A stretch of DNA of 64,000 bases, from positions 19,778,001-19,842,000 of the forward strand of contig OZ024756.1 of the NCBI GenBank assembly GCA_964016885.1, given 5' to 3'. The notes below the pieces were generated by a model. The model worked only from the letters and a program-made list of their open reading frames with translations, did no database searches and was not told the DNA's origin. Of this stretch, positions 18,301 through 33,300 are shown piece after piece (position 1 is the stretch's first letter; every line of letters starts with the position of its first letter). This DNA comes from Eledone cirrhosa (Eukaryota). The position numbers were made by a program, and so were the translations under genes.

Positions 18301-21300
18301 AACACACACACACACACACACACACACACACACACACACACACACACACACACACACACACACACATATATATATATATATACAGTATTTTCCGTAGTGT
18401 TGTAATATAAATATTACACACAGTAGATGGACAGCTCACGTAGAGTTTGCTCGACGGTTCCAGTTGTAGTTCCAAAAGTAATCCGGAGAAAAATAGAAGG
18501 TCCTCAGTAAAATTATTCCGATGAAATGACAGTTGATAATAACATTGAAATATTGAATGTCTGCATAACTAATACTTTGTAGATAGCAGCTGTTTTCAGG
18601 TTATGTAACTGTTATAGAAACACGTGTCAATAAATTCCTTTTAACTAAACTGTATCCATTCAAATCCTTCTATATATATATATATATATATATATATGTT
18701 TATATATATATATATATATATATATATATATATATATATATATATATATATATATATATAAACGGAAAAAAATGAAACGATATTTCATTTCCCACTCTTA
18801 GTACGGCTGTTACTTAAATATAAGTATGTACACGTACATACATATATGTATACCGACGTACAGTAGTATGTATATATATATATACATACATGCACACATA
18901 TATATATGCACGTATGGATTCACCGAACATTTATTATAATGCTCGGTGTGTTTGTAAACAAACATCCCGTATTAAGCCGTAGTGTCTAGCAACCACCGTT
19001 GCTCGTTTGTTCAACACTGACAAAGGAACGCTGTACTAGTTTCAAGCTTGTTAGCTATCGTCAGCAACGTATACCTTCCTGCCAGATTGTTGAACGTATA
19101 TACTTACCTTATGCATATTAACGGCTGAGTAGCCCAATTTGCATATCGAGTGGGTTAATCGGCCGGGTGCACCGAAAACGATAAACGGAAAAAATGAAAC
19201 GAAATTTCATTTCCCACTCTTAGTACGGCTGTTACTTAAATATAAGTATGTACACGTACATACATATATGTATACAGACGTACAGTAGTATGTATATATA
19301 TATATACATACATGCACACATATATATATATATATACATATATATACATATATATATATATATATATAATTTGAAGTTTGAAAGCTACGACAATGCGAGT
19401 TTGGACGGTAAATAATTAAACCGTAAGAAACAGGGGTTGTATTTTTTACCTTAATTTATTCATATGTCCTGATATTTCAAGATTAATATCTCTTCTTCTG
19501 AGGAAAATAAAGGAACTATTCCAGTGCCCGATGTGGCTTGCGTGTATATACTCGCCGAAAAGAAGTGACATAGTCGCTACTTTAAAGCTGATAGCGAATG
19601 GTCTTCTAAATGTTTTTAATTAAACATACGGTATATTGCCAAATATACTATACATGTATGTATGTATGTATGTATGTATGTATGTATGTATGTATGTATG
19701 TATGTATGTATGTATGTATGTATGTATGTATGTATGTATGTATGTATGTCAGGTCACCACTTGGTGCTACTGGTAACATGTATCCCAGTACAACCTGTCT
19801 CATGGTCGGGTCGTTGGCGACTAAACTGGCAACCCCACCAAGGTTTCTTGGTGAGGAGGGTGACTTTGGACATCCTGCAGGACTAAAAACAAAACCTGTC
19901 AAAGGGCAAAGGAGCTCTTAAGAGTCAATTGCCATCCAAAATCACTGGGAGAGATGACCCCTTAGCCTTTGTCAAGGCAGAATTCTAGGAGAAGGAAAAC
20001 TCTGATATAACACCTGCAACCCTGATGGTATCCAATGATGTTGACTTGTTCTTCTTTTTGGTAAATAGCATCTTAGTTAAGAGAGTGGGACTGGCTTTGT
20101 GCAGTGCCTTTGCTCACTATAAAAGCTTCACGGCACAGGCATTGCTTTATATCTGGAGATCTCTCTGCACTTGTCCTCACATGGGCCCAGCACTATGTGT
20201 CAATAATTGTCCTACCATGGGCCTAGCACTATGTGTCAATAATTGTCACAGGTGTAGTGTTTGTACCAGAGGTTTCAAGTCGCTGGCTGGACTAAAAAGT
20301 CACACTCGTTCAGCGCTTCGGTAGGGGTTCTCCTACATGGATGTAAAGTAGTGGCCGTACTCGAAAACGAGTTGTCAGCCACCATGTATGTATGTATGTA
20401 TGTATGTATGTATGTATGTATGTATGTATGTATGTATGTATGTATGTATGTATGTGTGTGTGTGTGTGTCTACTAATATAAAAGCCAATGTGTATTTGTT
20501 CGTCACACACTGGAGATGACTGAGGAAGGAGGTGAGGCGGTAAAGTATAGAAGTCCAGCGTCCTAAGATTCGTCACAGCTATGTATTTGGATGTGTGTAT
20601 GCTAGTATATATACATATACGTATATATTTATCTACAAGCTATCAATTATATATATATCGATCTAACATCCATCTGTCTCCCTATATATCACCAGTCTAA
20701 CAGTACACTACTAATGTCAACCACTGCTGTTCTGAAGGAGAGTTATATTTTAGCCCAAGTAAAGAATGCGGTGTAGTATCAACTTACATGAAGTAGTCTT
20801 CGCTGGCAGTTATGGTTTTATTCAAAGCAATCATCGTTTCCATTGATGTAGAGTTTACATTTCCCCCACTCTTTAGAAACGTCTCATTGTCTGTGAATAA
20901 TAATAATAATAATAATAATAATGATTTCTTTATTTTAATAATAATAATAATGATTTCATTTATTGGCCACAAGGGCCGACATATAGGGGACAACACAATA
21001 GACAGGGACAGTGGGGGTTTACATAGAGATCGAGTAAGTATAAATAACAAAAAAAACAAAATAACAATAAAAATACAACAATGAAAGTTCCCCAATAAGA
21101 GGGATCACCACCCAGGGTTGACTCAAGCACCCCACCAGTCCTGAGCCACCCGACGCTCCTAGGGCACCCGGGAAGGGCACCCCTCTCCTTCTCGAATTCA
21201 CCAGCCTACAGGCGCATGATCAGAGTAGGCCCACTCACGCGGGCCATTCTCGCCACATTCACCCACCTTTCAGTAAATGTACTGGGGGGCAGCACTTCTC

Positions 21301-30300: not shown

Positions 30301-33300
30301 CCGACTAACAGATGCAAAGATCTGATAATCGTCGAAAATCGGCGCCAGTGCGCGTGTGTCGGAAATTCTGGTCTCGCTGATGGCAATTACATCCATTCCT
30401 AGTGACCTGAGGTCGTTGAGCAAGTGACCTTGCTTCCAGGGCGACCCCAGGCCACGAACATTTAAACTTCCTACTCTTATGGCCATGCTGGCAGGATGAA
30501 TGGGAGAGGAAAGGTTTACTTACCTTCCGGGGTCTTGTGAAGGTCGGGTGGTTCGACCTCCATGGTTTGTGGGGTTTCTTTTGGGAACCCCTTTAATAGT
30601 CTTGACGTGGGTTTTACGTTCGGGGTTCCCACATCCCGAGGAAAGCTCTTTCGAATTTCTTTGTATGAAGCGAGCGACATTCGCATCAGAAGCAAATTAT
30701 CTGGTACGCGAAATGTGCTCGCTTCAAATGTTTCCCCGTCTTTTTCGATGTTTGTGCTTCGTGCTACATGGGCCATCAATTCCGTGTTGGCCCTTCTGGC
30801 AAGCACGAAGTTTTTAATGTTTTGTTGCTCGGGTTTTATTTGTTCGTGTGATTGTGGTGGTGATAGCTTTGTTAGTGTTGTTTCTATTGTGTCTGCGTTT
30901 GTTGTGGGTGGGGTGTCTGTAGTTTCTGATGTTTGTGTGTCTATTTGTTCTTGTGTCTGTTTAGCTTGTTTGCGTTTGGGGGATTTTGGTGGTTGTGTTG
31001 GTGATGCTGTGGGGAAAATGTTTGTGTGGGTGGTGTGTGTATTTTTTTTTGTGGGGGTGTTTGTGCTTTGTGGATTTCTTTTTTTTTTGTGTTTTGTTTT
31101 TTGTATTTTGGGGGACTTTGGTTTTCCCTCATCTTCACTGCTGGAGGATGAGGGGTCTGTGGCTGTGAGCGTGTTTGTGTCTGAGTGAGTGTTTATGTTC
31201 TTGTTCGTGTGTGTATTTTTGGGGGGAGGGGGAATGGGAGAGCTTTCCTCGTTTCCCCCCTGGGTGTGCAATTTTGGTGGTTCCATTGTTGACGGTGTTG
31301 CTGGTGGTCCTTGTCCCGGCGTCGCCAGCAGTGGAATCTTTCGACCCCTTGCGCTTTTCGGCAGTTGAGGGCAGAAGGCTCGCAAGTGTGTCGTTTCCCC
31401 ACAAAGGAAACAATGCGGCCTTTTGCCCTCAGTCATTATATGCAACACCCTCCCGTTTTGGAGGCGGATGTGGTCCGGGATTGCTTTCACGTTTTCGGGT
31501 CTGATTTGGAGCAGTATCTCCAGATCAACCCCGGACCAGTCGTCCCTGGCAGTTCTCGTTGCCTCTACCGGGACTGTATCCGTTCCTTCCACGATTACGC
31601 AACCCAGGAGCCACCACATATCAAGTCCTGGTGGAATCCTGGGAATGCGCACACGTGCTATTCGTTTTCCCATGTGGGAGGGGTACATTATGACCTTGCT
31701 GGTTTTGCAAGGGGTCATTGAATGCTTCACAGCGAGGGCTTCAGACTTGAACAGCACCGAAACGGTGCCGTATTGCCTGCCCCTCTCTATGAAGTCTGTG
31801 TCCTCTCTGATGTATTTCAGTGCGGCTTCTATGTCAGCTTGGGCGATTATCGCTGCCCTCTTTGTCTCTACTGAGATGCATCTGAAATGCACCGTTCTTT
31901 TTTCCACTGCCTCAATGGCTTCTGCCGGGACAGTTAAGTTTGCCCAGGTCTGCTCTTGATTTATGATTTTCCAGGCCTGGGCCAACTTTTCCTCTCTGTT
32001 GGTTAAGTCGATGCTGTAGCATGGTCTCCTTTTAGCCGCTGCCACAGCAGCGAAAGTGTTCTTGTTGGTGTTGTCACTGTTGTTGTTCTTGTTGGTGTTG
32101 CTGCTGCTATTGCTGTTGTTGTTCTCCCCTGTGTCGTGGTTACCTTCTGTGCTGTTGGCCTTGTTGGTGCTGCTGCTGTCGCTACTATTACTCTCTGTGC
32201 TGTTCGTTTTGTTGGTGCTCTCGCTATTACCACCTTCTGCGCTGTTCGGCTTGTTGGTGTTGGTGTTGTCGCTGTTACCACCTTCCGCGCCGCTCGGCCC
32301 GTTGGTGCTGGCACTGTCGCTGCTCACATTCGTGCTGGTGGCGCTCCTCGCCTCACCTCTCCTCTCAACGCTCAAGTCGCCGTTGCACGACAGCAGACCC
32401 GCCTCTAGGGGGCGTGGCTCCGCCATGTTTTTTTGAGAAAAAAATTATTATTTTTTTCAAAATAAAGTTCAAATATTTGGGCCAAAAGGCCCAAATATTA
32501 TGAGTTATTCCTTCACAGGATACAAATTAATGTCTTATAATGCTTCAGCGGTACAAAAAATAAACAATTCTCTACAATTAATCCTCAAAAATTGCTTACT
32601 CACGGAGCTTCAAAAAACGTACATCCACTTTCGTCAATAATAATAATAATAATAATAATAATAATAATGGTTTCTTATATAGGCATAAGGCCAGCAATTT
32701 TTTGGAGGCGGGGAAAGTCGATTAAATCGACCCCCAGTGCATTACTGGTACTTTATTTTATCAACCCCCAAAGGATGAAAGGCCAAGTAGACCGTGGCGG
32801 GATTTGAACTCACGTCTTAAAGAGCCAGAATAAATACCGCAAAGCATTTTCTCCGACACTATAAGGGAGGGCTGTGCAGCATATTCCATTGGTGGGCCAC
32901 TTTTGAACATTGGAACAACTATTAGGGCTGTTAATATTTATTAAGCACTATTCCAAAGATTCACCACAACTTCTTTCCATAACATGGAACTGGGAAATTA
33001 TAACACACATAACCCTATCAGTGAAGCCCTTTAGTGTAGGTCAACTGGGAAACTATAACACATATAACCCTATCAGTGAAGCCCTTTGGTATAGGTCAAC
33101 TGGGAAACTATAACACACATAATCCTATCAGTGAAGCTCTTTAGTATAGGTCAACTGGGAAACTATAACACACATAATCCTATCAGTGAAGCCCTTTAGT
33201 TTAGGTCAACTGGGAAACTATAACACACATAACCCTATCAGTGAAGCCCTTTAGTATAGGTCAACTGGGAAACTATAACACACATAATCCTATCAGTGAA

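Follow-up and report, generated by a model that had tools for sequence, protein, structure and literature searches.

We analysed a 64,000-nucleotide stretch of the Eledone cirrhosa genome (assembly GCA_964016885.1, contig OZ024756.1, positions 19,778,001 to 19,842,000), hereafter the window, in which two nearly identical long interspersed nuclear elements (LINEs) lie in tandem on the minus strand among runs of the trinucleotide ATT. Read along that strand, the order is a short interspersed nuclear element (SINE)-like copy called SINE A, (ATT)11, LINE A, (ATT)11, LINE B, (ATT)5, the insert AAAATAAAGAAATC, (ATT)9 and a splice acceptor AG (Table 1). A preliminary description of this DNA, made from its letters alone, had proposed this order with its coordinates, and both were reproduced base for base. 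The same description had reported two intact LINEs with identical 5' starts, open reading frames (ORFs) 1 and 2 open in each, and (ATT)n instead of poly(A) after the 3' end, all of which held on re-examination. LINE A and LINE B each carry a 5' untranslated region (UTR) of 209 nt and differ by 14 substitutions plus 5 gap bases in the 3' UTR. The (ATT)n tail of the SINE A copy is likely to have been the target used by the LINEs, and the insert likely represents a sister-family insertion with extreme 5' truncation, as the letters at its end suggest. The (ATT)9 run is followed by CACAG, whose AG lies at 20892-20891.

Table 1. Features of the tandem LINE array and the adjoining exon, in window positions and in minus-strand order.
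Feature	Position	Strand	Remarks
SINE A copy	32669-32870	-	5' part degenerate; 26 BLAST matches in the window, itself counted
(ATT)11 5' of LINE A	32636-32668	-	read as target run plus upstream copy of target-site duplication
LINE A, full length, 5,828 nt	26808-32635	-	5' UTR begins GACG; 3' terminus AATAAATGAAATC
ORF1 of LINE A, 636 aa	30516-32426	-	open frame
ORF2 of LINE A, 1,139 aa	27067-30486	-	open frame; APE endonuclease, reverse transcriptase (YADD), zf-RVT
(ATT)11 spacer between LINE A and LINE B	26775-26807	-	longest among 54 such junctions in the genome
LINE B, full length, 5,823 nt	20952-26774	-	99.7% identical to LINE A
ORF1 of LINE B, 636 aa	24655-26565	-	open
ORF2 of LINE B, 1,139 aa	21206-24625	-	open
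(ATT)5 3' of LINE B	20937-20951	-	likely downstream copy of target-site duplication
Insert AAAATAAAGAAATC, 14 nt	20923-20936	-	final 12 nt equal the sister LINE 3' terminus AATAAAGAAATC (by-eye comparison)
(ATT)9	20896-20922	-	read as remainder of the original microsatellite; 3 nt ahead of acceptor AG
Probable SLC6 (sodium:neurotransmitter symporter) exon, 103 nt	20788-20890	-	AG/GT bounds, open frame; exon status inferred

That the assembly had doubled a single copy at this locus is hardly credible. No listed long-read run spans the array, which such an artefact would accommodate, but the two LINEs differ at 14 sites, 8 of them variants present in other genomic copies, and the same tail-to-head junction recurs at 31 loci. 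The contigs of four sequencing runs do not cross the array and contain no molecule ends. In run X1 the unique flank has a depth of 3.7 and the element contigs 1,760-2,007, values that fit a high copy number and are no measure of it. The bin holding the host exon had no coverage in runs X4, X5 and X6, an absence to which we attach no weight.

The family was then sought throughout the 3.0-Gb genome. The exact 22-nt 5' start of the LINE occurs 324 times, and 318 of these occurrences stand directly after ATTATTATT, that is, (ATT)3 in register, a word that precedes only 0.00025 of the strand positions in the window. All 30 of the 5' flanks that were read are (ATT)n in one register, and the three of the six exceptions that were viewed are interrupted tracts still ending in ATT. 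The homing to (TAA)n/(ATT)n suggested by the preliminary description is thus borne out by a tabulation of 5' flanks across the genome, which are not random. An exact 30-nt word from the 3' UTR was found 344 times and, since 344 3' ends stand against 324 5' ends, most LINE copies are full length. This agrees with 39 copies fetched by their 3' UTR (window copy A excluded), among which 37 were full length, one was truncated and one was a sister-family chimera. We also assembled 76 distinct full-length copies, with one duplicate row dropped and with arrays over-sampled on purpose; both ORFs are open in 47 of them and ORF2 in 62, and divergence from the commonest letter of each column has a median of 9 substitutions per 5.8 kb (range 1-43). 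At the rate of 0.0036 per million years given for Octopus bimaculoides (PMC13282606), this divergence corresponds to a family age of roughly 0.4 million years, an upper estimate, some of the variation having been inherited. The ATT-homing LINE is therefore well supported as a young, real, genome-wide family of about 330 near-identical and mostly full-length copies; its youth had been anticipated from the two window copies, and the family is apparently transposition-competent.

What the first reading had missed is that SINE A and larger sister families use the same target system, with duplications that likewise start with ATTA in SINE A and in a sister family. The ORF2 of one sister family is 74.6% identical to that of the LINE; this family has 2,413 exact 5' starts, of which 2,330 follow (ATT)3, and its 5' flanks, where read, were ATT in 30 of 30 cases. 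Tails of the sister type number 7,441 and tails of an older relative 767. Two further copies (L250 and L225) begin with a distinct 5' start, GGCGACC..., placed after (ATT)n behind a tail of an older relative, which suggests a third ATT-homing family. Under two other organism labels, X5 and X6, 65-68% of the 31-mers of window positions 20480-26774 are present. X5 carries fixed variants of its own at high depth, pointing to a close, expanded subfamily in another species, with horizontal transfer as a lead only.

We sought to establish what the (ATT)n run behind each LINE represents. The preliminary description had supposed that the tail regenerates its own target, and a fresh (ATT)n does follow the LINE, but an encoded tail found no support where the target is interrupted. 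At such tracts the same interruption flanks the element on both sides, as in L135 (18 bp), L137 (15 bp), L144 (18 bp), L152 (18 bp) and the 5'-truncated L143 (17 bp). Since an interrupted run recurs on either side of the element, the (ATT)n behind the LINE is at least partly a target-site duplication of 15-18 bp, and it follows that the LINE ends at ...AATAAATGAAATC, the sequence beyond being duplicated target at those sites. An older truncated relative at window positions 37448-37712 is flanked by a 16-bp non-repeat duplication beginning ATTATA, and the spacers between tandem copies measure 15 or 18 nt (5 or 6 ATT units) at 41 of 54 junctions. With the target likely duplicated in this way, every insertion would leave new (ATT)n target at each of its ends. 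If, alternatively, the LINE encoded an (ATT)n tail and arrays grew solely as independent copies inserted one after another into these tails, (ATT)n should follow nearly all 3' ends, as it does, and some truncated copies do have (ATT)n downstream only. The interruptions found on both sides nevertheless contradict the encoded tail as a complete account, and we hold this combined explanation to be very improbable.

Several observations weigh against reading the run as duplicated target. In pure tracts the duplication, a tail and a leader cannot be told apart, and the informative sites of the family itself number only five and were picked as exceptions. The perfect duplication is shorter than 12 nt in 5 of 88 full-length copies (L073, L077, L081, L101 and L136). 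The truncated members of the family with downstream (ATT)n only, L141, L146 and L149, would fit an encoded or read-through tail too; they, and several relatives with the same pattern, may reflect later deletions, or an RNA carrying some (AUU)n at its 3' end. Among ten short sister copies, three lie in ATT tracts, one lies in an ACT tract and has 11 nt duplicated, and six have no duplication, and short copies of the older relative have none in six out of six cases.

Serial insertion could be judged from the arrays. Tail-to-head junctions number 54 and are spread over 31 loci, the largest array holding 10 copies; in three of the junctions checked the upstream body belongs to a relative and not to the same family. 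Eight of the 30 flanks read are tails of the family itself, three are sister tails and three are SINE tails; other arrays join unrelated copies. Mixed stacks of LINE, sister and SINE, which are common, can arise in no other way than by serial insertion, and 6 of 12 sampled arrays show no array-private shared variant. As the only process, however, serial insertion is difficult to reconcile with the target supply, given that tails of the family account for at most 0.5% of at least 67,123 (ATT)5 tracts yet stand before about 16% of its 5' ends. Across the 12 arrays, 16 of 25 adjacent pairs have in common a variant that occurs nowhere outside their array (5 of 12 when first pairs are taken), and a variant present in at most 3 loci is shared by 17 of 25 adjacent pairs versus 55 of 2,783 non-neighbour pairs. 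The neighbours L133 and L134 have 14 private variants in common and only 2 differing sites, and L108 and L109 are identical. Because neighbours share array-private variants, the arrays are not solely serial insertions, and local duplication or recombination also acts. The head-to-tail growth by insertion into tails that had been proposed from the window accordingly stands, with arrays at 31 loci and mixed stacks, but covers only part of how arrays arise.

LINE A and LINE B themselves share no private variant and are not mutually nearest copies. They do share three uncommon variants in a combination present in only 4 of the 76 copies, pointing to a shared source or to local exchange. The four-gamete test found 265 of 435 site pairs incompatible, so that the family is a mosaic; in L123, for instance, 38 variants fall in the first 2.1 kb and 4 in the remainder. 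A uniform chimera polarity, with an old 5' part and a young 3' part, was not evident: the pattern is clear in L123, L133 and L134 but reversed in winB and L103. For the longest arrays, mixing of haplotypes in the assembly is possible. In the C1 array of 10 copies, the last copy (L101) is followed not by the normal (ATT)n run but by an inverted repeat of its own 3' end. L099 and L075 are chimeras with a sister 5' body and a 3' part from the LINE family, joined in L099 at a short GGACG overlap.

SINE A allowed the target to be viewed outside long ATT tracts. One exact 27-nt 3' end of this element occurs 59,152 times in the genome, a lower bound on its copies given that a single exact end was counted. 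In the first 30 hits ATTA came next in 29, mostly outside microsatellites, and four or more ATT units followed in 1 of 30, versus 80 of 88 for the LINE. The bases following SINE A are repeated upstream over at least 8 nt in 19 of the 30 (8, 9, 11 in eight cases, 14, 15 twice, 16 three times, 19 twice, and 34 nt), and in a control stretch an upstream repeat of 12 or more was found in 1 of 30. Further duplications of 15-19 bp were also seen. C or T precedes the duplication in 19 of 19 cases, and none of the 9 duplications of at least 12 nt ends in ATT. The last ~25 nt of SINE A resemble the LINE ends by eye. These features suggest that SINE A is probably a passenger that shares the nick site Y^ATTAT and is mobilised by the LINE lineage. 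Against this stands the fact that the likeness of the 3' ends is short and judged by eye, with no shared fold evident. As to the origin of SINE A, motifs like the A and B boxes were recognised by eye, but a tRNA origin was not confirmed: ARAGORN found no tRNA in the window, and a weak Rfam tRNA match at 14816-14886 on the plus strand (22.6 bits vs a gathering score of 29) lies outside SINE A and is possibly the head of another SINE. Four SINE A copies stand in tandem at window positions 36473-37323, with a period of about 216 nt.

The encoded proteins place the family in the L1/Tx1 group. In ORF2, Pfam matches are Exo_endo_phos (7-226), RVT_1 (509-753) and zf-RVT (974-1026); the motifs NVRGL, ISET, GDWN, SDH, YADD and CCHC were located, and the endonuclease matches human L1-EN structures at E ~1e-7. 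An ORF2 with an N-terminal apurinic/apyrimidinic endonuclease (APE) domain, a reverse transcriptase (RT) and a C-terminal Cys-rich finger, together with a separate ORF1, is the architecture of this group, in agreement with the Tx1-type layout proposed initially. ORF1 consists of an N-terminal Asn/Ser/Thr-rich stretch, a central region with one CCHC knuckle and a Thr/Lys/Pro-rich linker. Its Pfam search at E 0.1 gave no match, including none to Transposase_22, and for residues 125-365 no homologue was found among 1,620 candidates of 349-1,113 aa. The nearest ESM Atlas clusters are of CCHC type (0.91-0.92), with a ZCCHC3-like RNA-binding cluster at 0.89 as a lead only, and a single-sequence AlphaFold model of the ORF1 core had a mean pLDDT of 35.5, which is unusable and leaves an RRM unconfirmed. 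The ORF1 of Tx1-clade elements is of the RRM/CCHC type rather than Transposase_22 (PMC5203782). The closest named relative of ORF2 comes from Argonauta hians (69%), and the clusters of 10 relatives yielded no informative names. In a quick tree of 65 RT domains, unrooted and built with no curated Tx1/L1 reference, the LINE, the sister, P0001 and the Argonauta protein group together (SH-aLRT 99); the only row called TX1 bears an automatic name (Stylophora, 38% RT identity).

Further traits narrow the assignment. Target-site duplication, a trait of the L1 group, is seen as 15-18 bp at the five informative sites. Target preference, a trait of the Tx1 clade, is defined by Kojima as more than 20% of flanks (PMC4494074), and here it extends to 318 of 324. 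Membership in the Tx1 clade proper is likely. Mammalian-type L1 traits are absent, with no poly(A) beyond the 3' end in 30 loci and no Transposase_22 match. The (TC)n or (TTC)n insertion of Kibi and Koshi does not apply to a family with (ATT)n in 30 of 30 5' flanks, and neither does the restriction-like endonuclease of Dong/R4, the place of which is taken by the N-terminal APE domain of ORF2.

From these observations we consider it probable that a young two-ORF LINE family of APE type, likely of the Tx1 group, inserts into (ATT)n in one register, with a predicted nick opposite Y^ATTAT and a target duplication of about 12-18 bp. The ORF2 protein would nick the (AAT)n strand at a T/R step, where reverse transcription would be primed at the RNA end ...GAAATC, and a second nick would follow roughly 11-19 nt downstream. 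The full-length 5' end would then join in the ATT register. The simplest account of this is a transcript that begins in the upstream (ATT)n, so that the cDNA end would anneal to the target as in R2, whose precise 5' junction can arise through annealing of the cDNA end to upstream target (PMC11331408). Such joining would explain why full-length LINEs require a tract and the SINE does not. Leader annealing would, in addition, bias the outcome towards full-length products. Duplications around the SINE vary freely in length and in their final base, whereas full-length LINE junctions end in ATT. The LINE junction C^ATTATT matches the inferred nick site, which would favour stacking: ...GAAATC^ATTATT would itself be a good target, on which LINEs, sister LINEs and SINEs could accumulate. 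Adjoining copies would also be duplicated or homogenised locally through unequal exchange, conversion or RT template jumping, and SINE A would be moved in trans by the LINE lineage, not necessarily by exactly the same family.

If target choice were due to the endonuclease alone, the ORF2 protein would read long (ATT)n and cut both strands in register with no leader, and the SINE would be moved by an older, looser relative. We regard this explanation as unlikely, although parts of it fit. The endonuclease is the main determinant of target choice in elements of this sort (PMC4494074), ATT tracts also hold some truncated sister copies, and the terminal GAAACA of the SINE is closer to an older sister end than to the GAAATC of the LINE family. 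By itself, however, it leaves the roughly 90% full-length share unexplained, and likewise L073, L077 and L081, in which pure (ATT)6-9 lies upstream but the downstream target turns to AGT units after 2-3 repeats. Three points count against our own proposal: a second nick favouring T/A steps would produce the register with no need of a leader, the comparison of truncated copies with SINEs has a mixed outcome, and the RT tree lacks a named Tx1 reference. Between leader-based 5' joining and a second nick that prefers T/A steps we see about even odds, the former being argued by analogy. More tentatively, and with doubt prevailing, one might envisage an octopod Tx1 radiation with a Y^ATTAT endonuclease, landing whole only where an (AUU)n leader pairs with the tract, and acting as the engine of one among the dominant octopus SINE expansions. 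If true, this would be a self-renewing LINE that homes to microsatellites almost without truncation and keeps hundreds to thousands of copies intact.

SNF Pfam matches flank the array on both sides, all on the strand of the array, which therefore probably lies in sense orientation within an intron upstream of the probable SLC6 exon. Near-identical tandem copies are recombination substrates, and here an 11.7-kb sense array stands a few bases from a probable neurotransmitter-transporter splice acceptor. The 3' end of ORF1 reads AAG|GTAAGT, at 30516-30524 and 24655-24663 on the minus strand, and the sister families retain GGTAAGT there; the motif resembles the splice-donor consensus. A 55-bp minisatellite (9.1 copies, 94% matches, window 32988-33486) lies directly upstream of the SINE A copy, and others have periods of 86 bp (7.7 copies, 42226-42889) and 94 bp (about 10 or more copies, 3660-5126).

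L1-Tx1 elements are expanded in coleoids (PMC8967140), and in Octopus vulgaris 13 recently active L1-Tx1 families with 421 insertions have been described (PMC13282606). Families orthologous to the ATT-homing LINE are probably among the annotated octopus L1-Tx1 families, whose annotations, in the parts of PMC13282606 and PMC8967140 available as text, carry no information on target, duplication, arrays or a SINE partner. The available parts of PMC3747384, PMC9115989, PMC4758252, PMC9004415, PMC5203782 and PMC4640811 hold no content bearing on the target. In this literature we found no Tx1 element targeting ATT or TAA and no Tx1 partner of an octopus SINE; either may still be on record in subscription papers, in Repbase Reports or in the supplementary files of PMC4494074 and PMC13282606. 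In O. vulgaris, SINEs account for about 12% of the genome (PMC13282606), and the present family is a candidate for the autonomous element behind a SINE that numbers at least 59,152 copies. Three traits take it beyond a routine new family: its high share of full-length copies, its fixed 5' register and its probable partnership with the SINE. LINEs are usually 5'-truncated. A family whose copies are about 90% full length and share one fixed 5' junction is a natural test of how APE elements join their 5' ends, and a starting point for tools of RNA-templated insertion. The comparison with R2 extends to the annealing of the cDNA end at the 5' junction proposed here (PMC11331408) and is an analogy by inference only, R2 belonging to another clade, with another endonuclease and a 28S rDNA target.

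Dong elements have a single ORF. They target the same class of microsatellite, and (TAA)n is given as a target only for Dong, DongAg and DongBg in the available part of PMC3812793, which places Dong among APE elements; elsewhere it is filed as R4, in the restriction-like endonuclease clade (PMC4640811). In O. vulgaris, Dong-R4 is both abundant and recently active (PMC13282606). Because the present LINE has an N-terminal APE domain and an ORF1, its (ATT)n/(TAA)n target is convergent with that of Dong, which adds a target to the site-specific LINEs of APE type and a second use of (TAA)n beside Dong.

Microsatellite-specific Tx1 elements and tandem stacking both have precedent, and (ATT)n is a new target within this known, target-specific Tx1 kind. 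Tx1-Mar and SINEU share a common target, Mariner, the SINE having a snRNA head, and their tandem insertions sandwich a target-site duplication (PMC4494074). The system described here likewise has a LINE, probably of Tx1 type, and a SINE at a common target, with tandem insertions around a duplication. The two systems differ in that insertion here takes place at a short ATTA motif or tract, and in that the SINE greatly outnumbers the LINE and is the less strict of the two. Within the clade, Kibi inserts into (TC)n, Koshi into (TTC)n and crocodilian Tx1 families into (TTCC)n/(TTTC)n (PMC4494074). Compared by description only, the present family resembles these as a two-ORF LINE of APE type confined to one microsatellite, and differs from them in targeting (ATT)n and in having an octopod host rather than a fish or crocodilian one.

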